IMG/VR virus record: IMGVR_UViG_3300025466_000015 | DNA from: a virus | Strand: one strand, 5' to 3' | Length of the DNA stretch: 64,000 bases | Shown: positions 14,266 to 49,976 of the stretch, piece by piece | How positions within the stretch are numbered: the first letter of the stretch is position 1 | Layout: each line of letters starts with the position of its first letter | Program-made: the position numbers and the translations under genes | Notes under the pieces: generated by a model | Seen by the model: the letters and a program-made list of their open reading frames with translations, nothing else | Databases searched by the model: none | What the model was told of the DNA's origin: nothing

Positions 14266-14341
14266 ACCCTCTTAGCCAAGCTGGTAAGGCATCGGATTTT
14301 GATTCCGACATGCGGTGGTTCGAGTCCATCAGGGGGTGCCA
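14266..14341 (+). tRNA. tRNA-Gln(TTG)
   Basis: Cloverleaf; TCGGA-tt TTG at-TCCGA; GGTTCGAGTCC; encoded CCA. Confidence 0.92.
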
Positions 14342-14403
14342 TATAAAAACACATTTGCAACCACATGGGAGTGAGATATCCAAGGGGAGTGTGTTTCTAT
14401 ATG
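14340..14403 (+). ncRNA. Small stem-closed RNA of unknown function
   Basis: 17-bp closing helix CATATAAAAACACATTT/GAGTGTGTTTCTATATG with one A.C mismatch. Confidence 0.5.
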
Positions 14404-14408
14404 ACAAT

Positions 14409-14499
14409 GGAAGATAATGCAGCTGGGTAGGCCGGCGACCAGCCTTGAAAACTGGGTTCTGAGAAATCGGATGGGGTTCGACTCCTCTGTCTTCCGCCA
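14409..14499 (+). tRNA. tRNA-Ser(TGA)
   Basis: ct TGA aa loop, long variable arm, G73-CCA. Confidence 0.9.
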
Positions 14500-14516
14500 A
14501 TTAAAAGGAGTTTATT

Positions 14517-15080
14517 ATGCCTAGTGTATTTCTTGTAAGTGACACACATTTTGGTCATCATGGAGTGTGTCGTTTCACTGGTAAAGATGGTGTTACAAAG
14601 CTTAGGCCATGGGACAATCCAGATGAGATGGATGAAGAAATGGTCAAGCGTTGGAACGAAAGAGTAAAGCCAACTGATAAAGTTTATCATCTTGGTGATG
14701 TGGTGATTAATCGTAAATCTCTTAATATTATGCGTAGGCTTAACGGAGACAAAGTTCTTATTAGAGGTAACCATGATATCTTTAGAGATAAAGAATACTA
14801 TGAACACTTCAGAGAGCTCCGTGCTTATCATGTTATGAGAGGTATGATTCTTTCACACATTCCACTTCATACCGATAGTATTCAAAGATTTGGTACCAAT
14901 ATTCACGGTCATACCCATGATAGGCGTGTAATGATTGGTAATGAAATTGATATCAGATACCATTGTGTATGTGTGGAACAAACAGACTACACTCCTATTC
15001 TTTTTGAAGATGTTGTGAAACGTATTCAAGCAGAAGGTGGTGAAGTTGATTTCAGACAGCATGGAAATAGAGCCATGTAG
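14517..15080 (+). CDS. Calcineurin-like metallophosphoesterase
   Basis: SDTHFGH, HLGD, RGNHD, SHIP, IHGHTH. Confidence 0.9.
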   Translation: MPSVFLVSDTHFGHHGVCRFTGKDGVTKLRPWDNPDEMDEEMVKRWNERVKPTDKVYHLGDVVINRKSLNIMRRLNGDKVLIRGNHDIFRDKEYYEHFRELRAYHVMRGMILSHIPLHTDSIQRFGTNIHGHTHDRRVMIGNEIDIRYHCVCVEQTDYTPILFEDVVKRIQAEGGEVDFRQHGNRAM

Positions 15081-15171
15081 GAGATTTGGCCGAGAGGTCT
15101 AAGGCAGCAGGTTGCTAACCTGTCGTATTGAGTAATCAGTACCGTGGGTTCGATTCCCACAGTCTCCGCCA
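15080..15171 (+). tRNA. tRNA-Ser(GCT)
   Basis: tt GCT aa loop, long variable arm, CCA. Confidence 0.92.
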
Positions 15172-15176
15172 GTTAA

Positions 15177-15254
15177 GGTTAGGTGCCAGAGAGGTCCAAT
15201 GGAACAGTCTGCAAAACTGTAAAACCGTGGGTTCAAATCCCACCCTAACCTCCA
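15177..15254 (+). tRNA. tRNA-Cys(GCA)
   Basis: ACAGT-ct GCA aa-ACTGT; U73-CCA. Confidence 0.92.
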
Positions 15255-15276
15255 TTAATAGTTGACCGGAATAAAG

Positions 15277-15322
15277 TAATACTAAAGTATTAGGTTGCCA
15301 TTTCAACCAGTTCTGTTACAAT
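15277..15322 (+). promoter_or_regulatory. Palindrome TAATACT-AA-AGTATTA plus promoter TTGCCA-16-TACAAT
   Basis: Palindrome 15277-15292; -35 at 15295; TGn extended -10 at 15317. Confidence 0.6.
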
Positions 15323-15361
15323 ACATTTATCGGTTGAGAAATCAATTGATAAAAAAAGTGA

Positions 15362-15413
15362 AGTTGTAGAAATACAACAGGATGGTTGACAAATTATCCC
15401 AATCTGGTATAAT
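15362..15413 (+). promoter_or_regulatory. Palindromic box plus sigma70 promoter TTGACA-16-TATAAT
   Basis: AGTTGT-agaaat-ACAACA 15362-15379, 6-bp gap, -35 at 15386. Confidence 0.8.
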
Positions 15414-15446
15414 AGAGTCTTGTTCAGTTAATTAAGGAGAAAAATT

Positions 15447-15548
15447 TTGGAATGTTTAAAATGTAGATTTTGGCACTGGCCAACAAATTACACAAAAGGT
15501 GCTCCATGTGATCCTAAATTCATTCCAGTTCCCGTAAAAACGGAATAG
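15447..15548 (+). CDS. Putative 33-aa Cys/His peptide (MECLKCRFWHWPTNYTKGAPCDPKFIPVPVKTE)
   Basis: SD AAGGAG, TTG start, own promoter; CxxC-H-C pattern. Confidence 0.5.
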   Translation: MECLKCRFWHWPTNYTKGAPCDPKFIPVPVKTE

Positions 15549-15563
15549 AAAACAAAAAAAGAG

Positions 15564-15627
15564 TGTTGTCATCGTACAACACTCTGGTTGACAAAGGTAA
15601 TTACCTATGTTATAATTGTTCTTTAAA
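15564..15627 (+). promoter_or_regulatory. Palindromic box, promoter TTGACA-17-TATAAT and boxA-like TGTTCTTTAAA
   Basis: TGTTGT-catcgt-ACAACA 15564-15581; -35 at 15588; -10 at 15611; boxA-like 15617-15627. Confidence 0.8.
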
Positions 15628-15636
15628 TTGTAAGTT

Positions 15637-15711
15637 GCTCGGTTCGTCTATCGGTTAGGACACCGCCCTTTCACGGCAGTAAGACCAGTTCGATTCTGGT
15701 ACCGAGTACCA
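15637..15711 (+). tRNA. tRNA-Glu(TTC)
   Basis: ct TTC ac loop; GTTCGATTC; CCA. Confidence 0.9.
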
Positions 15712-15921
15712 TACTAAAATACATTAGGTTACCAACTCTAGTAGGTGACTTTTTAGGTTGAAATGCGGGCCGCTGCATACCTTTAAAGTTACATGAAGCC
15801 TTCCGATGGCGCTAGAATCAGTTGAAGTGTAATGTGGAGATTGTCTTATCGGCAGACGAAGCCGTGAGAAGCTGGATGAAGTTCCAGAACGACAATCACA
15901 TCCTAATGTATTTCAGTATGG
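15709..15921 (+). ncRNA. ~210-nt multibranched structured RNA of unknown family
   Basis: 20-bp closing helix with one A.C mismatch and at least 7 nested internal helices. Confidence 0.65.
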
Positions 15922-15924
15922 TGT

Positions 15925-16047
15925 CATTTGTTTTGCTGACGTAAGCCATGGGGGAAACGTCAACCCTGAGTAACTGCGTATATAAACGGTACGTCTAGCT
16001 AGCAATTCCGTTGAGCGTCAGCAAATAGTGCGTCAGCAAAACAAATG
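15925..16047 (+). ncRNA. ~120-nt stem-closed RNA of unknown family
   Basis: Perfect 17-bp helix CATTTGTTTTGCTGACG/CGTCAGCAAAACAAATG; internal duplicate GCGTCAGCAAA. Confidence 0.55.
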
Positions 16048-16121
16048 GTCTCATAGTATAATGGTTAGTACGGTGGCTTGTCACGCCACTAATAGGAGTT
16101 CGATTCTCCTTGGGACCGCCA
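16047..16121 (+). tRNA. tRNA-Asp(GTC)
   Basis: GTGGC-tt GTC ac-GCCAC; G73-CCA. Confidence 0.92.
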
Positions 16122-16125
16122 ATTT

Positions 16126-16225
16126 TTAAAATGTGTGTAGCAGTTGAGTCTGCCATAAAACACGGTTCGCCTGTAGCACGGTACTCAGCCCGACATAAAG
16201 AACAGTTACTGACCACACATTTTAA
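16126..16225 (+). ncRNA. ~100-nt stem-closed RNA of unknown family
   Basis: 12-bp helix TTAAAATGTGTG/CACACATTTTAA; internal TGAGT/ACTCA and GG-TTCG-CC hairpin. Confidence 0.5.
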
Positions 16226-16235
16226 TTTGTTTTAT

Positions 16236-16370
16236 GCTCAGAAACATCCACGCTACGGTTCGCAACCGTGGGTCCACGGTGAGTTCGCTACTCATGGCAG
16301 TTGGAGAGGTAAACACCCCCGCCACAGGGGGTCTCCGGTGAAAGAAGGTGGGATTCCTTCGTGAGCGCCA
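16236..16370 (+). ncRNA. 135-nt tRNA-like RNA ending in CCA
   Basis: GCTCA/TGAGC-G-CCA acceptor-like end, T-arm GAAGG-tgggatt-CCTTC, two internal TTCGC hairpins, no anticodon arm. Confidence 0.65.
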
Positions 16371-16374
16371 ATTT

Positions 16375-16450
16375 GGAATCGTAGCTCAGTTGGCAGAGCA
16401 GCGGACTTTTAATCCGTAGGTCAGGAGTTCAAATCTCCTCGGTTCCACCA
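16375..16450 (+). tRNA. tRNA-Lys(TTT)
   Basis: GCGGA-ct TTT aa-TCCGT; CCA. Confidence 0.93.
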
Positions 16451-16457
16451 GCTTTAT

Positions 16458-16532
16458 GGAGAGATTAGTTTAGTGGTAAAACCACGGGTTGTGATTCCGT
16501 TATCACGGGTTCGATTCCCGTATTTCTCCCCA
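16458..16532 (+). tRNA. tRNA-His(GTG)
   Basis: tt GTG at loop; G-1 and C73. Confidence 0.92.
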
Positions 16533-16539
16533 AGATTAT

Positions 16540-16614
16540 TCCACAGTAGCACAGCGGTAGTGCAGTTGGCTGTTAACCAATTGGTCGTAGGTTCAATCCC
16601 TGCCTGTGGAGCCA
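16540..16614 (+). tRNA. tRNA-Asn(GTT)
   Basis: GTTGG-ct GTT aa-CCAAT; G73-CCA. Confidence 0.92.
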
Positions 16615-16621
16615 AGTAAAT

Positions 16622-16706
16622 GGATGTGCCGCCGTAATGGTATGGCAGGAGACTGTAAATCTTCCGGTTTACACCACAGTTGGTTCGATCCCAACCACAT
16701 CCACCA
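16622..16706 (+). tRNA. tRNA-Tyr(GTA)
   Basis: ct GTA aa loop; long variable arm; CCA. Confidence 0.9.
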
Positions 16707-16710
16707 TTTT

Positions 16711-16786
16711 GCCCCTATAGCTCATCTGGTAGAGCAACTGATTTGTAATCAGTAGGTGCCGTGTTCGAGTCATGGTGGGGGCACCA
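16711..16786 (+). tRNA. tRNA-Thr(TGT)
   Basis: ACTGA-tt TGT aa-TCAGT; CCA. Confidence 0.92.
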
Positions 16787-16792
16787 ATTTTT

Positions 16793-16869
16793 CGGAGTGT
16801 AGCACAGCCTGGTAGTGCGCTTGCTTTGGGAGCAAGAGGTCCAAGGTTCGAATCCTTGTACTCCGACCA
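16793..16869 (+). tRNA. tRNA-Pro(TGG)
   Basis: CTTGC-tt TGG ga-GCAAG; C1-G72; CCA. Confidence 0.93.
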
Positions 16870-16963
16870 TTTCATATGAAGGTGTAAATTCTCTACTTGT
16901 AGTCCAAAATTCTTTGGCCTTGTAGGGTTCTGTAAAAATGCCTTTATTCATTTCCGTATTTAT

Positions 16964-17037
16964 GGGGGATTAGTATAATGGGATTACGGCAGCTTTGCAA
17001 GTTGTTTATAGGAGTTCGATTCTCCTATCCTCCACCA
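16964..17037 (+). tRNA. tRNA-Ala(TGC)
   Basis: tt TGC aa loop; G3.U70; CCA. Confidence 0.9.
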
Positions 17038-17042
17038 TTCAT

Positions 17043-17117
17043 AGTGACGTAGCTTAACGGTAGAGCAAATCCTTCATACGGATTAGGTTGGGGGCTCGAA
17101 TCCCTCCGTCACTACCA
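17043..17117 (+). tRNA. tRNA-Met(CAT), probably elongator
   Basis: AATCC-tt CAT ac-GGATT; paired 1-72; CCA. Confidence 0.82.
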
Positions 17118-17119
17118 AT

Positions 17120-17194
17120 CGGTCCTTAGTAAAATGAATATTACACAGAGCTACGAACTCTGAAGTGGGAGTTTGATTCTCTCAGGACCGGCCA
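17120..17194 (+). tRNA. tRNA-Arg(ACG)
   Basis: CAGAG-ct ACG aa-CTCTG; variant T-loop TTTGATT; CCA. Confidence 0.85.
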
Positions 17195-17200
17195 ATATAT

Positions 17201-17274
17201 ACTCTCATAGTTAAATGGTATAACAGACGCTTGATAAGCGTCCATTACAAGTTCAATTCTTGTTGGGAGTACCA
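17201..17274 (+). tRNA. tRNA-Ile(GAT)
   Basis: GACGC-tt GAT aa-GCGTC; CCA. Confidence 0.9.
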
Positions 17275-17276
17275 AT

Positions 17277-17351
17277 ATCTCGTTAGTGTAACGGTAACAT
17301 GCTGGTCTCCAAAACCATGCGATTGCGGTTCGAATCCGTAGCGGGATACCA
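17277..17351 (+). tRNA. tRNA-Trp(CCA)
   Basis: ct CCA aa loop; GGTTCGAATCC; CCA. Confidence 0.87.
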
Positions 17352-17352
17352 A

Positions 17353-17967
17353 TTATTCTGAAACTGATTCAGCAGGATGCCATTCTGTTGGTGTCACACC
17401 TTCAAGCAAGGTGGATAAATCTAAACCATAATAATAGTCTTCTAATATTTCTTTCATATAATCAAGAACCTCTATTTTGTGTTTGAATTGTTTTAATTCA
17501 CCTTCACGGAATTTAATTTGATCCTGTATGATACTTTTAATGAAGTTTTCACCTTCTTTTTTACGGTTAACCTTATTTAAAATTTTATTGAGCTTGATTA
17601 TAAAACCATTACATGTTATAATGTTATCTTTAATTTGGCCAACGTTATCTTGCATTTCTCTTTTCATTACAAAGATTAAATCATCATGGTCTGGATTAAT
17701 TTTTGTAATGCAATGAGTTGTTAAACCTGCTAACTCTTGTAACGCTTCTGTTCTAATCGGAATATCTTCTTCTATTTTGCCTGTTGCATCATAGTCGGCT
17801 CTTCTGGATGGATCACTAAGTACTTCGTAAGCAAGTTTAATTTTTTTAAAAGTGGTCTCATCACCACCTTTATCAGGATGATGTTGTTGAGCCAAAGCTC
17901 TGTATCTTTGTTTGATTTCATCAAAGGTGCATCTTGGAGATAGTCCTAGTTCATCGTATAAGTTCAT
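17353..17967 (-). CDS. DnaJ (J-domain) protein
   Basis: NLYDELGL..EIKQRYRALAQQHHPDKGGD..AYEVLSDP; minus-strand TATAAATA at 17992-17999. Confidence 0.9.
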   Translation of the reverse strand: MNLYDELGLSPRCTFDEIKQRYRALAQQHHPDKGGDETTFKKIKLAYEVLSDPSRRADYDATGKIEEDIPIRTEALQELAGLTTHCITKINPDHDDLIFVMKREMQDNVGQIKDNIITCNGFIIKLNKILNKVNRKKEGENFIKSIIQDQIKFREGELKQFKHKIEVLDYMKEILEDYYYGLDLSTLLEGVTPTEWHPAESVSE

Positions 17968-18010
17968 TTTATTGATTTAAAAGTTGTAAGATATTTATAA
18001 AGGTGGTTAT

Positions 18011-18493
18011 ATGAGAAAATTTGATATAGAAGAAGTTAAATCATTTCTTGCTTCACAAGGACCAGATACTAAAGTTTATCTTGGTGCTGATTCTGAAAGA
18101 GTAAGAGTCAATGGTGTTTGGTATGCAGACTACGCTTTGGCCGTTGTTGTTCATATTGATGGCCGCCATGGTTGTAAAATTTTTGGTTATGTTGAACGAG
18201 AAATTGATTACGACCACAAGAAAAGTAAACCAGCAATGAGATTAATGACCGAAGTTTATAAAGTTTCGGATTTATTTCAATCACTTGCTGAAGTATTGGA
18301 AGACTTCCATGTTGAAGTGCATCTAGACCTGAACAAATCGGATCTATTTGGTTCATCATGTGTAGTACAACAAGCAATTGGTTATATCAAAGGTACATGT
18401 AATATGACACCAATGGTTAAACCAGATGCACCTGCGGCTTCTTTTTGTGCTGATAGATTAAAAAGAATTCTAACAGAACAAGAAGCAGTTTAA
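18011..18493 (+). CDS. RNase H-like YkuK (DUF458) family protein
   Basis: VYLGADS, RLMTEV, EVHLDLN, KPDAPAASFCADR. Confidence 0.8.
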   Translation: MRKFDIEEVKSFLASQGPDTKVYLGADSERVRVNGVWYADYALAVVVHIDGRHGCKIFGYVEREIDYDHKKSKPAMRLMTEVYKVSDLFQSLAEVLEDFHVEVHLDLNKSDLFGSSCVVQQAIGYIKGTCNMTPMVKPDAPAASFCADRLKRILTEQEAV

Positions 18494-18512
18494 TTTTTTT
18501 ATAAGGATTTTT

Positions 18513-18770
18513 ATGAGTTATATTCCATTGAATGGTAAAATTATTGTTGAACGTATTGAAGCATCAAAAGAAACAGCTTCAGGTATTATTTTAAAATCTT
18601 CTGGTGAACCAGATAGAGCAAAAGTAATTACTGTTGCTGATAATTTGGATGAAGTTTCAATTAATGATGAGTTGCTTGTTAATTGGAATGGAGCCGTAAA
18701 ATTAGAAAACGATATTTACAGTATTGACATTGAACATGTTGTTGCTGTATACGATGCCTCGTTAGTTTAA
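18513..18770 (+). CDS. groES: Co-chaperonin GroES-like
   Basis: IPLNGKIIVERIE..TASGIIL..AKVITV..IEHVVAV. Confidence 0.85.
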   Translation: MSYIPLNGKIIVERIEASKETASGIILKSSGEPDRAKVITVADNLDEVSINDELLVNWNGAVKLENDIYSIDIEHVVAVYDASLV

Positions 18771-18829
18771 TGGTAGAACACCGCCCTTACAAGACGGTTA
18801 CGGCAGTTCGATTCTGTCACGAGGTACCA
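18756..18829 (+). tRNA. tRNA-Val(TAC)
   Basis: ct TAC aa loop; CCA; 5' end overlaps groES stop. Confidence 0.88.
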
Positions 18830-18830
18830 T

Positions 18831-18906
18831 GCAACCTTAGCTGATGTGGTCATAGCGGCGGTTTGAAGAGCCGTGGAAGTTGGTTCGATTCCAACAGGTT
18901 GCACCA
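18831..18906 (+). tRNA. tRNA-Phe(GAA)
   Basis: GCGGT-tt GAA ga-GCCGT; CCA. Confidence 0.88.
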
Positions 18907-18964
18907 AATAATGTAATACTTGTTTTATATAAATATATCATGTATACCATTTTTAAGGATAGAA

Positions 18965-19426
18965 ATGAGACAAGATATAATAGATAGAAAACAAGATATA
19001 CTCATTTGGATTAACGAAAATCAATCTAAATCTTTTATTTGCAAACAACTTGGATGTAAACCAGAAACACTTGAAAGTTATCTAAAAAAGTTTGGTGTTG
19101 TTTATAAAGGCAACATGGGACTAAAGGGTAAAAAAACAGACAGTAAATATGTTCCAGCTTTGGATTATATCAAAGGTTCTTTTGTTTCCGCACACAAACT
19201 AAAATTAAAATTAATCCGTGATGGTATAAAAGAGCATAGATGTGAATTGTGTAGCACAATTGAATGGATGTCTCAAAAAGTTCCTTTAGAGCTTGACCAC
19301 ATAGACGGAAATCATTATAATAATGAATTGTCTAACCTGAGAATTATTTGTCCAAATTGTCATGCACAACAGGATACTAATTCAGGTAAGAATGTAAAAC
19401 ATCGTAAAAAAATATTGCCCCTTTGA
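18965..19426 (+). CDS. HNH homing endonuclease within the tRNA array
   Basis: CELC..LELDHIDGNHYNNELSNLRIICPNCH; late promoter TATAAATA at 18928-18935. Confidence 0.9.
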   Translation: MRQDIIDRKQDILIWINENQSKSFICKQLGCKPETLESYLKKFGVVYKGNMGLKGKKTDSKYVPALDYIKGSFVSAHKLKLKLIRDGIKEHRCELCSTIEWMSQKVPLELDHIDGNHYNNELSNLRIICPNCHAQQDTNSGKNVKHRKKILPL

Positions 19427-19501
19427 TGTAACTGGTAGCCATGCGGTCCTTAGAAGTCCGTGCCGAAAGGTGTGAGGGTTCGAATCCCTTGGGGGGCACC
19501 A
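19417..19501 (+). tRNA. tRNA-Leu(TAG)
   Basis: ct TAG aa loop; variable arm GCC-GAAA-GGT; CCA. Confidence 0.87.
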
Positions 19502-19505
19502 ATAT

Positions 19506-19582
19506 GTGGTTGTGATGGAATTGGTATACATATCAGACTTAAAATCTGAGTTTTGTGGGTTCGAGTCCCACCTTCCACACCA
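19506..19582 (+). tRNA. tRNA-Leu(TAA), short variable region
   Basis: TCAGA-ct TAA aa-TCTGA; 5-nt variable loop; two U.U pairs in acceptor stem. Confidence 0.8.
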
Positions 19583-19586
19583 TGAG

Positions 19587-19664
19587 GCCCCTGTGGACAA
19601 ATTGGCAAAGTCGTTTCTCTCAAAAGGAAAAATTCTCTCGGTTCGACTCCGAGCGGGGGTACCA
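19587..19664 (+). tRNA. tRNA-Leu(CAA), short variable region
   Basis: TTTCT-ct CAA aa-GGAAA; CCA. Confidence 0.82.
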
Positions 19665-19736
19665 GTAATAATGTAATAAAAGTAATAAGAGTAATATCCT
19701 GTGTAGGATGTTAAGTGCTGATGTATAATAACATCT

Positions 19737-20018
19737 ATGAAAAACACTATATTACTCCTATCATTTTTAGCAACTGCCTGTGGCGGAGGTGAACCAAATA
19801 CTTCCGTAACCAAACCATGTGTCAGTAACATTGTAGCAACTATGTCTGAGATGACCTCGCCATTTTTTGAAGGTATGGGTACGCCTGATAGCATTACCAC
19901 ATTTCCTATAATAAATGGTCAACATAGTATTGAATATGATTTTAAATCACTACATAAGAGACTAACATTTATTTGGACAGACCAAGGTGTTTGCCAAGAA
20001 ATAGAAACAACAATTTGA
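19737..20018 (+). CDS. Small lipoprotein
   Basis: MKNTILLLSFLATA-C lipobox. Confidence 0.65.
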   Translation: MKNTILLLSFLATACGGGEPNTSVTKPCVSNIVATMSEMTSPFFEGMGTPDSITTFPIINGQHSIEYDFKSLHKRLTFIWTDQGVCQEIETTI

Positions 20019-20093
20019 CTGCCGTTAGTATAATGGATAATACAGCTGCCTTCTAAGCAGTCAATAGAGGTTCGATTCCTCTACGGCGGACCA
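20019..20093 (+). tRNA. tRNA-Arg(TCT)
   Basis: ct TCT aa loop; GGTTCGATTCC; CCA. Confidence 0.9.
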
Positions 20094-20121
20094 ATAAATA
20101 GTAATAGTTAAGGAGAAACTA

Positions 20122-20454
20122 ATGTCATATATTATTCAACTCGTAAAAAATAAACCGGAAGACAAACAATTTTTTAGATATGGTTATAAAGATTCCGATG
20201 CGAATACTATTGTGAAAAATATTAATAGTTGGATCAATAGTCAACCTGGTCTTATTAGTCGTAACACGCCGCCTCCTGCAGATTTTGATATTGCAAATTC
20301 TAATATAATAATTGAAAGTTTTGAATTTAAATCAAATGTTTTTGCTGAAATATTTCAAGCACAAACCGCTTCAAATCCGGATTGGCAATTACGATTAAGT
20401 TACGAAGCAAACAATTCAATTACATCAACTTGGCAAGTGGTTGAAAATACATAA
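20122..20454 (+). CDS. Hypothetical protein
   Basis: SD AAGGAG; ATAAATA late-like element upstream. Confidence 0.6.
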   Translation: MSYIIQLVKNKPEDKQFFRYGYKDSDANTIVKNINSWINSQPGLISRNTPPPADFDIANSNIIIESFEFKSNVFAEIFQAQTASNPDWQLRLSYEANNSITSTWQVVENT

Positions 20455-20456
20455 TT

Positions 20457-20531
20457 GCTCCGATAGCTTAATGGTAAAGCAACCGACTCATAATCGGTTG
20501 AGTCTGTGTTCAATTCACAGTCGGAGCACCA
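20457..20531 (+). tRNA. tRNA with CAT anticodon, probably Ile2 (lysidine type)
   Basis: ACCGA-ct CAT aa-TCGGT resembles the bacterial ileX arm; CCA. Confidence 0.75.
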
Positions 20532-20549
20532 AGTTTACCACAAGGACGC

Positions 20550-20578
20550 TTGACAAGAGCGCCTATATAAGATACAAT
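20550..20578 (+). promoter_or_regulatory. sigma70 promoter TTGACA-17-TACAAT
   Basis: Directly upstream of the Gly tRNA group. Confidence 0.75.
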
Positions 20579-20590
20579 CTAATTTTAGTT

Positions 20591-20665
20591 GCGGGTATGG
20601 TGCTAGTGGTAACACAAGACCTTGCCAAGGTTTAGTTGAGAGTTCGATTCTCTCTACCCGCTCCA
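20591..20665 (+). tRNA. tRNA-Gly(GCC)
   Basis: tt GCC aa loop; GCG start; U73-CCA. Confidence 0.9.
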
Positions 20666-20672
20666 GTTTATT

Positions 20673-20746
20673 GCGGATTTAGTTTAATGGTAGAACGGGA
20701 GATTTCCAATCTTTCGGCAACAGTTCGATTCTGTTAATCCGCTCCA
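20673..20746 (+). tRNA. tRNA-Gly(TCC)
   Basis: tt TCC aa loop; U73-CCA. Confidence 0.9.
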
Positions 20747-20751
20747 GTTAT

Positions 20752-20816
20752 GCGGGGGTTTCAAACAACATTGGGGTCCACCTGATGTCCTAGTGAGAAT
20801 CTAGGCACCCGCTCCA
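20752..20816 (+). ncRNA. 65-nt D-armless Gly-type mini-tRNA / tRNA mimic
   Basis: GCGGG/CCCGC-U-CCA acceptor; 8-bp arm with GTCCA loop; T-arm CCTAG-tgagaat-CTAGG; no D arm. Confidence 0.65.
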
Positions 20817-20835
20817 ATTTATTATGGAGTTCATA

Positions 20836-21027
20836 ATGTCTGATGGTGGCAAAGGAAGTAATCCAAGACCTTTTAGTGTAGACCAAGACACTTATGGTAA
20901 AAACTTTGACGCCATCTTCCGTAAACCTACACCAAAAGAATTAGATGATGAGGCAGCTGAAAAAGAAGCTTTTGATAAATTATCGCAGGGTGGTGAAACA
21001 GTATCACGAAGGACTCATAATCCTTAG
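20836..21027 (+). CDS. Small hypothetical protein (GGKGSxPRP motif)
   Basis: SD GGAG; MSDGGKGSNPRPFSV..NFDAIFRK; 3' end runs into tRNA-fMet. Confidence 0.6.
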   Translation: MSDGGKGSNPRPFSVDQDTYGKNFDAIFRKPTPKELDDEAAEKEAFDKLSQGGETVSRRTHNP

Positions 21028-21057
21028 TTCTTGGTGCGACTCCAGGCTCTGCAACCA
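20984..21057 (+). tRNA. Initiator tRNA-fMet(CAT)
   Basis: C1.A72 mismatch; ct CAT aa loop; CCA; lacks the full three G-C anticodon-stem pairs. Confidence 0.8.
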
Positions 21058-24673: not shown

Positions 24674-24997
24674 GTGGAGAACATTATGAAAGTACTAGCG
24701 TTACGCCTCGTTACAGGCGAAGACCTTCTTGGAGAGTTAGAAAGTGAATCGGAAACAGAATTTGTGATTGAAAATCCAGTTGGAATCACAGTTGTTCGTG
24801 GTAAAGATGGTATGCCTAATGTGGGATTCTCACCATTTCCATTACATTCTGAACAAAAGACCGGCACAACTGTTGCCTTAGCTAAGCGTCATGTAGTATA
24901 CTCCTACACTCCAGCCGAAGACTTTGTTACAAACTATAATCAAATCTTTGGTTCTGGCATCGTTCTACCACCAACACCACAAATTATTACAGGTTAA
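24674..24997 (+). CDS. Conserved T4-like hypothetical protein, possible Sm-like fold
   Basis: VLALRLVTGEDLLG..IENPV; ends YNQIFGSGIVLP; precedes gp43. Confidence 0.65.
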   Translation: MENIMKVLALRLVTGEDLLGELESESETEFVIENPVGITVVRGKDGMPNVGFSPFPLHSEQKTGTTVALAKRHVVYSYTPAEDFVTNYNQIFGSGIVLPPTPQIITG

Positions 24998-27537
24998 TGA
25001 CAACATTTTATACCAATGTGCAATCAGTTGGTAATCAAATCCTTTACCGTGGTGTCAGAAATGGCCAACGGATTAAAGAAAGGGTTGATTACGAACCATC
25101 GCTTTATATTCCTTCAAATAGAAATGCCAATTTCAAATCTCTAGAGGGTATTACTCTTACACAAAAGAGATTTGATGGTATGTCTATGGCAAGAGAATAT
25201 ATTAAAAATTTCAAAGATGTGGCCGGTGCACCAAAGGTCTACGGTCAAACTCGATTCGAATATGCTTACATTGCTGACGAACATCCAAACATGGTTGATT
25301 GGGAACAAGAACACGTTTCTATCGGCATCATTGATATTGAGGTTGGTTCTGAAAATGGTTTCCCTGATCCATACAAAGCTGACGAACCAATTACAGCCAT
25401 CTGTTTAACATTCTTAAATGGCAAGACTTGGGTATTCGCCTGTGGTGACTATGAAACACAAGGTGATGAGTTGTATGTAAAATGCAAAGATGAGTGGACT
25501 CTTTGTAGTAAATTCATGAAACTCTGGCAAGACCAATGTCCTGATGTTATCACTGGTTGGAATACAAAGTATTTTGATATACCTTATCTTGTTAATCGTT
25601 TCACAAAAATTCTAGGTGAGAAAGAAGCAAAGAGACTATCGCCTTGGAATATGATTTTTGATAAGAAAGAATTCAACAACAATCGTGAGATGACATCGTA
25701 TGATTTGATTGGTATCGGTTCTCTAGATTATATCGAACTCTACAAATGGTATGCTCCTGGCGGTAAGTCACAAGAGTCTTATCGTTTGGATAATATTGCT
25801 CAAGTAGAACTCGGTGAAGGTAAAATTTCATATGATGAGTTTGATAACCTACACGCCTTGTATCGTTTGAATCATCAAAAGTTTATTGAGTATAACATCA
25901 AAGACGTTGCGTTGATTATCAAACTAGAAGACAAGTTGAAGTTGATTGAATTGGCCTTGACCTTGGCTTATGACACCAAGTCCAATTACAATGATGTGTT
26001 TGCTCAAACTAGAATGTGGGATGCTTTGACATATTCATATTTGCTTGGTAAAGGCATTATTGTTCCTCCAAAATCTAATCATGAAAAGACCTCGGCTTTT
26101 GAAGGTGCCTATGTGAAAGATCCACAAGTTGGTCTACACCATTATGTTGCCAGCTTTGACTTAAATTCACTTTACCCTCACCTTATGGTCCAATACAATA
26201 TTAGTCCTGAAACTTTAATTCAGCCTGAAGATTACACAGATGAAATGAGAGAAGTTCTTTCGCAAGGCGTAACAGTTGATAAATTGTTGCTTAAGAAAAT
26301 TAATACAACAAATATGAGTGGTTGTACATTAACTCCAAATGGTCAGTTCTTTCGTACTGATAAACAAGGTTTCTTACCTGCCATGATGGAAGAAATGTAT
26401 GAAGATAGAAAGAAATTCAAAAAGTTGTATCTCCAAGCCAAACAGGAGTATGAAAATGAACGAGATGAATCCAAGAAGTATGAAATCGAAAAACGAATTG
26501 CGAGATATAACAACCTACAATTGGCTAAGAAAGTTTCTCTTAATTCTGCTTACGGTGCTCTTGGCTCTCAATATTTTCGTTTTTATGACCTTAGGATGGC
26601 TTTGGGTGTCACGACAGCTGGTCAACTTAGTATTAGGTGGATAGAAAATAAAATCAATGAGTATATGAATAAGTTGTTGGAGACTAAAGATGTTGACTAC
26701 GTTATTGCGAGTGATACTGACTCTATCTATCTCCGTCTTGGCGGTGTGGTTGATAAATTTATCACTAATAAATCTACGGATACAAACAAAATCATACGTT
26801 TCATGGATAGGATTTGTGAGGATAAAATTCAACCTTTTATTGATAAGAGCTATGGAGAACTTGCAGAATACGTTAGAGCGTATGCACAAAAGATGCAAAT
26901 GAAACGTGAGGGTCTGGCCAATAAAGGTCTATGGACTGCCAAGAAGCGTTATATTCTAAACATATACAACAACGAAGGTGTACAGTATAACGAACCACAG
27001 ATGAAGGTGATGGGTCTGGAGATGATTAAATCGTCTACACCATCTGCCATCCGTGATAAGATGAAAGAGTCTATTAAGATTATGATGAATGGTTCTGAAC
27101 AAGACATTCAATCATTCATTGCTCAGTTCAGAAAAGATTTCAATAATCTTCCACCAGAAGAAATATCTTTTCCTCGTGGGTTGAATGGACTTACCACATA
27201 CTCTGATGCAATGACACTATATAAAAAAGGAACACCAATTCATGTGAAAGGTGCTATTCTATACAACCACAACCTGAAACAATTGGGACTTACTAAAAAG
27301 TATCCGTTGATTCAAGAAGGTGAGAAAATCAAATTCACCTATTTGAAGTTACCAAATCCTTTTAAAGATACGGTAATTTCCTATCCATCAAGATTACCGA
27401 CAGAGTTTGGGCTTGACAAGTATGTTGATTATGATTTACAATTCAACAAAGCATTTCTTGAACCGATTAAAGTCATTTTGGATTGTATGAAGTGGTCTGT
27501 TGAGAAAACAAATAGCCTTGAAGATTTTTTTAATTGA
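24997..27537 (+). CDS. gp43: Family B DNA polymerase gp43
   Basis: DIEV exonuclease, FDLNSLYPH, KKVSLNSAYG, SDTDS, KKRY; C-terminal clamp motif SLEDFF. Confidence 0.97.
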   Translation: MTTFYTNVQSVGNQILYRGVRNGQRIKERVDYEPSLYIPSNRNANFKSLEGITLTQKRFDGMSMAREYIKNFKDVAGAPKVYGQTRFEYAYIADEHPNMVDWEQEHVSIGIIDIEVGSENGFPDPYKADEPITAICLTFLNGKTWVFACGDYETQGDELYVKCKDEWTLCSKFMKLWQDQCPDVITGWNTKYFDIPYLVNRFTKILGEKEAKRLSPWNMIFDKKEFNNNREMTSYDLIGIGSLDYIELYKWYAPGGKSQESYRLDNIAQVELGEGKISYDEFDNLHALYRLNHQKFIEYNIKDVALIIKLEDKLKLIELALTLAYDTKSNYNDVFAQTRMWDALTYSYLLGKGIIVPPKSNHEKTSAFEGAYVKDPQVGLHHYVASFDLNSLYPHLMVQYNISPETLIQPEDYTDEMREVLSQGVTVDKLLLKKINTTNMSGCTLTPNGQFFRTDKQGFLPAMMEEMYEDRKKFKKLYLQAKQEYENERDESKKYEIEKRIARYNNLQLAKKVSLNSAYGALGSQYFRFYDLRMALGVTTAGQLSIRWIENKINEYMNKLLETKDVDYVIASDTDSIYLRLGGVVDKFITNKSTDTNKIIRFMDRICEDKIQPFIDKSYGELAEYVRAYAQKMQMKREGLANKGLWTAKKRYILNIYNNEGVQYNEPQMKVMGLEMIKSSTPSAIRDKMKESIKIMMNGSEQDIQSFIAQFRKDFNNLPPEEISFPRGLNGLTTYSDAMTLYKKGTPIHVKGAILYNHNLKQLGLTKKYPLIQEGEKIKFTYLKLPNPFKDTVISYPSRLPTEFGLDKYVDYDLQFNKAFLEPIKVILDCMKWSVEKTNSLEDFFN

Positions 27538-48962: not shown

Positions 48963-49976
48963 ATGTCCGTTTTTATTGATAGAAATTTTCTTCTTCAAGT
49001 TTCACCTAAGTTACAGAACTTCACCCAAAAAAAGGATGACCTCTATAATTTCAGGTGTCCGCTCTGTGGCGACTCACAGAAAAATAAATCAAAATCCCGT
49101 GGATATGTTTTTCGTAAAGGTAATAATTACTTTTATAAATGCCATAACTGCCATGTTTGTATTTCCTTTTACAATTTTTTAGATAAGGTTGATCCGGAAC
49201 TAATCAAAGAATATCAACTTGAAAGATATAAAGATGGAAACAACAATAAAACCGACCATAAAGCACCGACATTTGAGGAGTTCAAAACCAAGCCTGTATT
49301 CAAAAAGGCACTCCCAATTCCTAACATTGAATCGCTTCCAGAAGAACATTATGCTAAAGCTTATGTTAGGTCTAGAAAAATCCCCGAACAGTTTTACCAA
49401 ACGCTGTATTTTGCGGAAGACTTTAAGAAGTTTGTTCAAGACCTTAAGATACCGAAAGATGGCCTCCAAGACGATGACCCTAGGCTGGTAATACCATTTT
49501 ACGACAAAGATAAAAATCTAGTTTCCTTTCAAGGCCGTGCTCTTGGTGAATCCAAACTAAGATATATCACCGTAAAGATGAATGAAGAAAGTGCCAAAGT
49601 CTATGGTCTTGATAGGATTGATGAGGAGAAGAAGATATATGTTACAGAAGGTCCTATTGACTCTATGTTTGTGGATAACTGTGTGGCTACTGCTGATGCT
49701 AATCTACCTTCAATTACCAGAATATTTGATAAATCACGGGTGGTTCTTATTTTTGATAACGAACCCCGAAACAAAGACATTGTAAAAAAAATGGAAGAAT
49801 CCATTGAAGAACATTACCAACTGGTAATTTGGCCTGAGATGATGGAAGGTTACAAAGATATTAACGAAATGATTCTAGACGGCTTTACAACAGATGAAAT
49901 TCAAGATATAATAGATAACAACACATTCGTTAACCTTAGAGCTAAAATGGAATTTATAAAATGGAAAAAAGTATGA
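48963..49976 (+). CDS. gp61: DNA primase gp61
   Basis: NFRCPLCGDS..CHNC zinc finger; QGRAL; TEGPIDSMF; FDNEPRN; KDINEM. Confidence 0.95.
   Translation: MSVFIDRNFLLQVSPKLQNFTQKKDDLYNFRCPLCGDSQKNKSKSRGYVFRKGNNYFYKCHNCHVCISFYNFLDKVDPELIKEYQLERYKDGNNNKTDHKAPTFEEFKTKPVFKKALPIPNIESLPEEHYAKAYVRSRKIPEQFYQTLYFAEDFKKFVQDLKIPKDGLQDDDPRLVIPFYDKDKNLVSFQGRALGESKLRYITVKMNEESAKVYGLDRIDEEKKIYVTEGPIDSMFVDNCVATADANLPSITRIFDKSRVVLIFDNEPRNKDIVKKMEESIEEHYQLVIWPEMMEGYKDINEMILDGFTTDEIQDIIDNNTFVNLRAKMEFIKWKKV

Follow-up and report, generated by a model that had tools for sequence, protein, structure and literature searches.

Behind a tRNA gene of an uncultured phage lies a stretch of about 210 nt that had been predicted, from the letters alone, to encode an unclassified multibranched RNA, and this raises the question whether such an RNA exists, where it begins and ends, and what it might do. 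The stretch is part of a window of 64,000 nt (IMG/VR virus record IMGVR_UViG_3300025466_000015), which has a G+C content of ~36%. By a gp43-type DNA polymerase (24997-27537), a gp44-type clamp loader and other T4-type genes nearby, the window is assigned to an uncultured T4-like phage; the closest polymerases among GenBank phages are those of T4-like cyanophages, with ~50% identity. A run of 26 tRNA genes, each on the + strand, extends from 14266 to 21057. The element, which we named El1 (15709-15921, + strand, 213 nt, El1 position n being window position 15708 + n), was defined by its minimum-free-energy fold and the family alignment, and is located between tRNA-Glu(UUC) at 15637-15711 and tRNA-Asp(GUC) at 16047-16121, both likewise on the + strand. 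At 14409-14495 there is probably a 27th tRNA, which has a long variable arm and a 3' CCA; the tRNA-Sec model scores 32 bits there, which is below threshold, and ARAGORN makes no call. Furthermore, the array contains a calcineurin-like metallophosphoesterase (14517-15080), which ends where a tRNA-Ser starts, and, among the tRNAs, a DnaJ-domain protein on the minus strand (17353-17967), a PF04308 RNaseH-like protein (18011-18493) and an HNH endonuclease (18920-19426).

El1 folds with a minimum free energy of -74.4 kcal/mol, compared to a mean of -48.9 kcal/mol (sd 4.2) for dinucleotide shuffles, which corresponds to z = -6.05, and none of 200 shuffles was as low. The fold consists of a closing stem, P1, a central junction and two domains, each with a three-way junction of its own, which makes three such junctions if the central one is counted. 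All parts lie on the + strand, and all helices that the original prediction had listed were found at their places within the minimum-free-energy fold. P1 is formed by the strands 15709-15728 and 15902-15921, with the terminal UGG opposite CCA, and is 97.2% paired in the family alignment, with changes on both sides in 16 of its 20 pairs. The predicted 20-bp closing stem is therefore present over its 20 positions, but one of these is an A.C mismatch in the window copy, next to 19 Watson-Crick pairs (an inverted-repeat search gave 21 nt with 95% complementarity). In the same way the predicted extent and fold of the element hold, except that its first three bases (CCA, 15709-15711) are at the same time the encoded 3' end of tRNA-Glu. 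P1 is followed by the junction J1/2 (UUAC, 15729-15732), in which UUA is invariant. Domain 1 (15733-15824) comprises P2a (15733-15736/15821-15824), P2b (15737-15742/15811-15816), P3 (15745-15752/15785-15792), P3a (15755-15758/15779-15782), P3b (15763-15768/15773-15778) with a conserved GNCG loop at 15769-15772, and P4 (15798-15800/15808-15810) with the loop UUCCGAU; P3 and P4 are separated by J3/4 (AUGAA, 15793-15797), which holds a conserved GAA. The helices of this domain, helices 2-7, are 85-99% paired with both-side changes in each, and one El1 subfamily has a larger branched insert instead of P4. The linker J2/5 (15825-15833), with a nearly invariant GUAAU(G), leads to domain 2 (15834-15901), which comprises P5 (15834-15836/15899-15901), P6 (15839-15845/15891-15897), P6a (15846-15853/15861-15867; loop AGACGAA at 15854-15860, GACG invariant) and P6b (15872-15876/15883-15887), with helices 8-11 being 92-100% paired. 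P6b is variable and missing in some members; the hairpin is deleted in locus L087 and replaced in the L088 group. J1/2 (El1 positions 21-24) is complementary to GUAA at 15829-15832 (El1 positions 121-124), and these two invariant segments possibly form a short junction helix.

A search with the 4227 models of Rfam 15, among them RNase P, tmRNA, 6S, SRP, self-cleaving ribozymes, raiA, HEARO, YrlA, GOLLD and ROOL, found nothing over 15709-15921 at the gathering threshold or even at E <= 10, with tRNAs being the only matches here, which agrees with the original prediction that the RNA belongs to no known family. Variant members in the loci L081, L091 and L092 gave no Rfam match over the element either. 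Using blastn with three queries against 50,697 GenBank phages, tRNA-Glu alone was matched and El1 was not found, and the species-representative genomes of GTDB (185,579 species), scanned for exact patterns, gave no El1 match. The databases searched set El1 apart, and together with the whole explanation given below we hold with moderate confidence that it represents a family of structured non-coding RNAs of about 195-250 nt, not described before, in the tRNA arrays of uncultured aquatic T4-like phages.

Related loci were gathered via the metallophosphoesterase protein adjacent to El1, which led to 80 IMG/VR loci, and BLAST detected the element in several of them. A first pattern scan, built from the 5' end of El1, gave 45 loci with 30 distinct full-length copies of 199-242 nt. 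A second scan, which used the interior of El1 independently of the closing stem and was followed by a covariance-model filter, added 22 further members of 193-251 nt, whose closing-stem sequences are quite different. The 52 homologs, 193-251 nt in length, are all located on IMG/VR contigs of uncultured T4-like phages; a copy at 49140-49353 of locus L117 was confirmed as a member. The covariance model was made from three close copies and the minimum-free-energy structure. When 30 sequences were aligned to it, 97.0% of the cells were paired and 48 of 73 pairs had changes on both sides, whereas pairing was only 34-41% in controls with the 3' partners slid by 1-3 columns. Among 38 diverse sequences, 95.5% of the cells were paired and 61 of 73 pairs were changed on both sides; pairing fell to 35-41% in the slid controls, and not one of 500 shuffles reached the observed values. 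The alignments behind these main counts were fitted to the model, which biases them in its favor; due to the slid controls and to an alignment made by MAFFT and RNAalifold without any model, which recovered P1, P3b, P4 and P6a with 18 doubly changed pairs, this bias is smaller, though not gone. In the MAFFT alignment P2 occurs as CCAAC/GUUGG, CCAAU/AUUGG and CCUAA/UUAGG, and P3b as UGCGG/CUGCA, CACAG/CUGUG, CAGCA/UGCUG and GUCCU/AGGAC. Compensatory covariation is present in all 11 El1 helices and exceeds the slid controls, just as the original prediction, which had named phage homologs as the place to look for it, would have it. A search for additional loop-loop or pseudoknot covariation in the 38-sequence alignment detected none, in a scan that was noisy because of G-U-tolerant matches. 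El1 is a conserved structured RNA and not a chance fold, and with its covarying helices and without any Rfam relative it strongly supports the claim of an unclassified structured RNA of ~210 nt; it is a real and well-supported family of structured phage RNAs that is present in no database searched.

The alignment also shows on which strand the structure is under selection. G-U pairs are frequent (in the 38 sequences, columns 34/183 are UG in 38 of 38, and columns 210/322 are GU in 26 and GC in 12), and many positions alternate between G-U and G-C or A-U. On the opposite strand the G-U pairs would be C.A mismatches, and therefore selection acts on the + strand RNA, which is the strand of the tRNAs. 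No conserved ORF was found in El1 among the family members examined. A small ORF of 10 codons starting at the AUG of CAUGAAG was rejected, since its frame is lost in members with CACGAA, CAAGAA or CAGGAA, and ORFs of 35-40 amino acids over El1 were rejected as well, since indels break them across members.

While the helices change in a compensatory manner, ~25 unpaired bases in junctions and loops are invariant or nearly so. These are UUA after P1, UAGG before P3, the GNCG tetraloop on P3b, CA-GAA between P3 and P4, GUAAUG between the two domains, and GACG in the loop of P6a. In the GAA of J3/4, G87 and A88 are invariant and A89 is present in all but one of 30 members. Rewritten helices around frozen junction and loop bases argue for an interior with a specific three-dimensional form that is recognized by some partner, and against filler between two processing sites. 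RNAs of such size and intricacy that keep many unpaired bases invariant are seldom found, and earlier examples often proved to be ribozymes, riboswitches or the cores of RNA-protein complexes.

The ends of El1 are set relative to tRNAs. In 43 of the 52 members El1 starts inside the CCA of the upstream tRNA, which is tRNA-Glu in 37, tRNA-Ile in three, tRNA-Ser in two and tRNA-Leu in one of them, and the +2 overlap between tRNA and El1 seen in the window is the same in 27 of 30 loci examined. At the other side, 14 of 52 members end <=9 nt before a tRNA, and in L006, L087, L092 and L151 (of which L167 is a duplicate) El1 and the next tRNA share one base, at the end of El1 and the start of the tRNA, which is tRNA-Asp in the first three of these loci. 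Four members without an upstream tRNA start their stem with CUA instead of CCA and have the partner G changed to A, so that pair 2 of P1 goes from C-G to U-A, and therefore the terminal bases do pair. Three members starting with CUA (L138, L143, L168) have a T-arm-like hairpin, CUCGG-AUACAAU-CCGGG, followed by CA, within the 90 nt upstream, possibly a degenerate tRNA or a minihelix with a continuing role in 3' processing. In L131, a distant member, El1 starts 12 nt after the -10 hexamer of a perfect promoter. Members at a transcript start or without an upstream tRNA have kept the full core. Overall, El1 lies beside tRNA-Glu in about four fifths of the loci, after it in 38 (one with a 13-nt gap) and directly before it in five, while the rest of the array is shuffled.

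A sigma-70 promoter (TTGACA-17-TATAAT, with TG before the -10; 15588-15616, + strand) with 12 of 12 hexamer matches precedes tRNA-Glu in the window, and its -10 hexamer ends 20 nt before the tRNA. Of 29 homologous loci, 20 have a promoter with a score of 11-12 of 12 no more than 110 nt ahead of the tRNA. The promoter of the window presumably drives tRNA-Glu, El1, a neighboring element named El2, tRNA-Asp and onward. Just upstream of it, another sigma-70 promoter that is also perfect (15386-15413) precedes a Cys-rich ORF of 33 codons (15447-15548) that has no PHROG match, and a 10-bp hairpin (15560-15585) directly precedes the promoter of tRNA-Glu.

El2 (15925-16047, + strand, ~123 nt) is the next stem-closed cassette, which follows El1 after a UGU spacer and whose last base is G1 of tRNA-Asp. 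Its fold has a z of -2.85, and copies of it with 81-84% identity occur in relatives that are more distant, located there directly after the CCA of tRNA-Glu. Thus, the order is tRNA-Glu-CCA, El1, tRNA-Asp in L006 and L092, and tRNA-Glu-CCA, El2, tRNA-Lys in L035 and L020, whereas the window has both cassettes in tandem (CCA, El1, UGU, El2, tRNA-Asp). In other relatives tRNA-Glu is followed by different stem-closed inserts, which are 91-404 nt long and mostly begin with CCAU. In addition, a stem-closed hairpin at 14339-14403, directly after tRNA-Gln, has a closing stem (CCAUAUAAAAACACAUU...) that resembles that of El1 including the position of the A.C mismatch, and encloses an insert of ~30 nt unrelated to El1. 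El1 is present in one copy in the window and in each of four near-complete genomes (164-172 kb). It is missing from four complete relatives, with clean boundaries between presence and absence, and is therefore dispensable or replaceable. Hence, El1 is patchily distributed and behaves like one of a set of stem-closed cassettes that can replace each other between tRNAs, and recombination between the conserved tRNAs that flank it suffices to explain its exchange. The anchoring in the CCA of tRNA-Glu, the consensus promoter and this cassette behavior are informative context that the original prediction did not contain. Two more non-coding elements are present between tRNA-Asp and tRNA-Lys (16119-16374), a region with an overall fold z of only -0.85 and with parts conserved in L001, L006, L010 and L011; the first of them (~16126-16225) has a 12-bp AU-rich closing stem that starts just after the CCA. 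Long non-coding gaps also separate tRNAs at 19664-20984 (Leu-Arg 354 nt, Arg-Met 363 nt, Gly-Met 237 nt), one of them with a 26-nt inverted repeat (19677-19769), and further cassettes may lie inside these gaps.

What El1 might do can be framed from these sequence features. We consider it probable, with some reserve, that El1 is a member of a family of stable phage non-coding RNAs that is released by tRNA-processing enzymes and acts in trans. El1 would be transcribed together with the tRNAs from the strong host-type promoter just upstream of tRNA-Glu, and in its 20-bp terminal helix the CCA of the upstream tRNA would pair with the bases that immediately precede the following tRNA or cassette. 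The maturation enzymes of the tRNAs on either side would then free El1 as a stem-capped, nuclease-resistant RNA, following the principle of tRNA punctuation. On the downstream side RNase P would cut at the 5' end of the following tRNA; in the window, the 3' end of El1 would need a different cut, because a cassette and not a tRNA comes next. On the 3' side of tRNA-Glu the cut could be made by an endonuclease and 3' exonucleases, or by RNase III within the AU-rich stem of 20 bp; no RNase III gene was found in eight related phage genomes. The released RNA would be expected to be stable because both of its ends are buried in a helix. Finally, the ~25 invariant unpaired bases would form a specific binding surface or an active site that works in trans, most probably on a protein or RNA linked to tRNA or translation. 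Provided that the RNA is real and released, we regard a trans-acting stable RNA with such a partner as a tentative assignment, at somewhat less than an even chance. Such an arrangement has precedents: in the RNase III stalks of rRNA operons a long flanking helix encloses a functional RNA, and in mitochondrial tRNA punctuation the ends of tRNAs set the ends of their neighbors. However, these systems carry rRNA or mRNA, whereas the cargo of El1 is an RNA of 170 nt and its cleavage is only proposed.

The main rivals of this trans-acting reading are a spacer that acts in cis and a ribozyme. As a purely cis-acting processing spacer or insulator, El1 would need nothing but its closing stem, which would hold one tRNA by its CCA and the following one by its 5' end, order or protect their maturation or offer an RNase III site, and the interior would be tolerated filler. 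The frequent start of the stem inside a CCA (43 of 52 loci) fits this idea, and so do the El1-like closing stem around the unrelated insert after tRNA-Gln, the other stem-closed inserts at the same place in relatives and the lack of El1 in four complete genomes. However, all ten internal helices covary, the unpaired bases of the core stay invariant in members with rewritten helices, and the full core is kept even where El1 stands at a transcript start or lacks an upstream tRNA. We therefore consider it unlikely that El1 is only a spacer.

A narrower version of the trans-acting reading, for which we see a small chance, would make El1 a dedicated partner RNA of tRNA-Glu, of its synthetase, or of modification or cleavage enzymes. 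It is suggested by the adjacency to tRNA-Glu and by the single-stranded GAA in J3/4, which is the codon read by the anticodon UUC. Both are suggestive, but they are confounded by shared synteny, and the GAA is unchanged beside other tRNAs, which keeps this idea speculative. The possibility that the GAA is a specifier that tracks the neighboring tRNA was rejected, since it persists where the neighbor is tRNA-Ser or tRNA-Leu.

A ribozyme, whether it processes itself or works on tRNA or another RNA, would be in line with the size of El1, its three three-way junctions and its many invariant junction bases, which are typical of catalytic or ligand-binding RNAs, and the metallophosphoesterase in the same array could heal cyclic-phosphate ends. 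Yet this enzyme is also encoded in relatives without El1, no known ribozyme family matches at E <= 10, and the noisy scan detected no pseudoknot or loop-loop covariation. Moreover, the natural release sites would be inside or at the end of a continuous helix, unlike the cut sites of known self-cleaving motifs. A ribozyme is thus a very unlikely reading of El1.

The original prediction had emphasized a repeated (T/C)GAAG motif and had inferred, next to a scaffold, which El1 may be, and a ribozyme, a protein sponge that would titrate a factor by these repeats. Its counts are correct: the window copy has four YGAAG, where 0.50 are expected from mononucleotide shuffling (P ~0.001), and one TGAAA, and three of the four are located in loops or linkers. 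However, the repeat is a trait of the window copy and its close relatives and not a hallmark of the family, in which members have 0-4 copies and five of 30 have none. One position is kept, and only as GAA: this part of the first motif is conserved family-wide, as is the GACG in the third hairpin loop. In true sponges such as CsrB or RsmZ the repeats are conserved. Since this is not the case for YGAAG, the sponge is unsupported and, in our view, highly improbable. Still less credit can be given to a miniature inverted-repeat element at the DNA level, whose terminal repeats would merely resemble an RNA stem: 20-bp terminal inverted repeats are present and the distribution is patchy with clean boundaries among similarly related phages, but a DNA transposon is unlikely because El1 is not a dispersed repeat, with one copy per genome and always beside a tRNA end, because no target-site duplication is visible at its borders (15700-15930), and because El1 is absent from the bacterial genomes among the GTDB representatives, and its interior helices covary with strand-specific G-U pairs. 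Equally remote is a Y-RNA-like RNA that tethers a Ro60-type protein by its long terminal stem, for although the overall plan of a long stem from both ends with an internal structured module is alike, and bacterial Y RNAs are linked to tRNA-like modules (PMC4201824), El1 has no T-arm-like module, neither the YrlA nor the Y_RNA model matches it (weak YrlA hits fall on tRNAs), and a Ro60/TROVE gene was found in none of eight related phage genomes, in which the positive controls scored.

Stable RNAs with comparable surroundings are known from other phages. In phage T4, rnaC and rnaD encode small stable RNAs within the tRNA cluster, on the strand of the tRNAs and directly after a tRNA, and El1 is placed likewise. 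The function of RNA C and RNA D, the species 1 and 2 stable RNAs, is still unknown (PMC3014915). They differ from El1 in fold and show no homology to it in sequence or structure: rnaC is 139 nt long with a T-arm-like hairpin and rnaD is 119 nt long, whereas El1 reaches 213 nt, is built around three three-way junctions and lacks a tRNA-like arm, and the El1 model run with filters off over T4 positions 68000-76000 gave a best score of 7 bits, which is noise. GOLLD and ROOL are structured RNAs of phages or prophages that are often found next to tRNA islands, that have no known function, and of which many GOLLD members exceed 800 nt (PMC12286853). Both are much larger than El1, and their Rfam models match neither El1 nor the array of the window. 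On the 83.5-kb phage contig L091 a GOLLD (RF02032, 214 bits, 1381-1845) with an embedded tRNA (1444-1516) lies ~750 nt downstream of an El1 member, and no GOLLD was found in four near-complete genomes that carry El1. The structured-RNA candidates from IMG/VR of Fremin et al. (2023) resemble El1 in the data source and the kind of evidence, covariation in intergenic regions of phages; since the motifs reported in that catalog are 29-151 nt long, with a mean of 67 nt, it cannot hold the whole of El1 (PMC10690425).

With T4 RNA C and D, GOLLD and ROOL, phage tRNA arrays already contained RNAs that are unexplained, and El1 joins them. It does so as a compact family of ~210 nt with strong covariation and precise ends, which is small enough for probing, crystallography, cryo-EM and genetics. 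If El1 were indeed a partner of tRNA-Glu, an RNA encoded by phages would act in trans to capture, protect or decoy a single kind of tRNA. More generally, the arrangement suggests a rule for these phages: exchangeable cassettes closed by stems occupy the gaps between tRNAs, and tRNA processing sets their ends. Such a rule could explain how accessory RNAs are expressed without promoters or terminators of their own, and it bears on the question why phages carry tRNA arrays at all. If it holds true, phage tRNA arrays would possess, in their CCA-anchored stem-closed cassettes, an exchangeable system of accessory RNAs.
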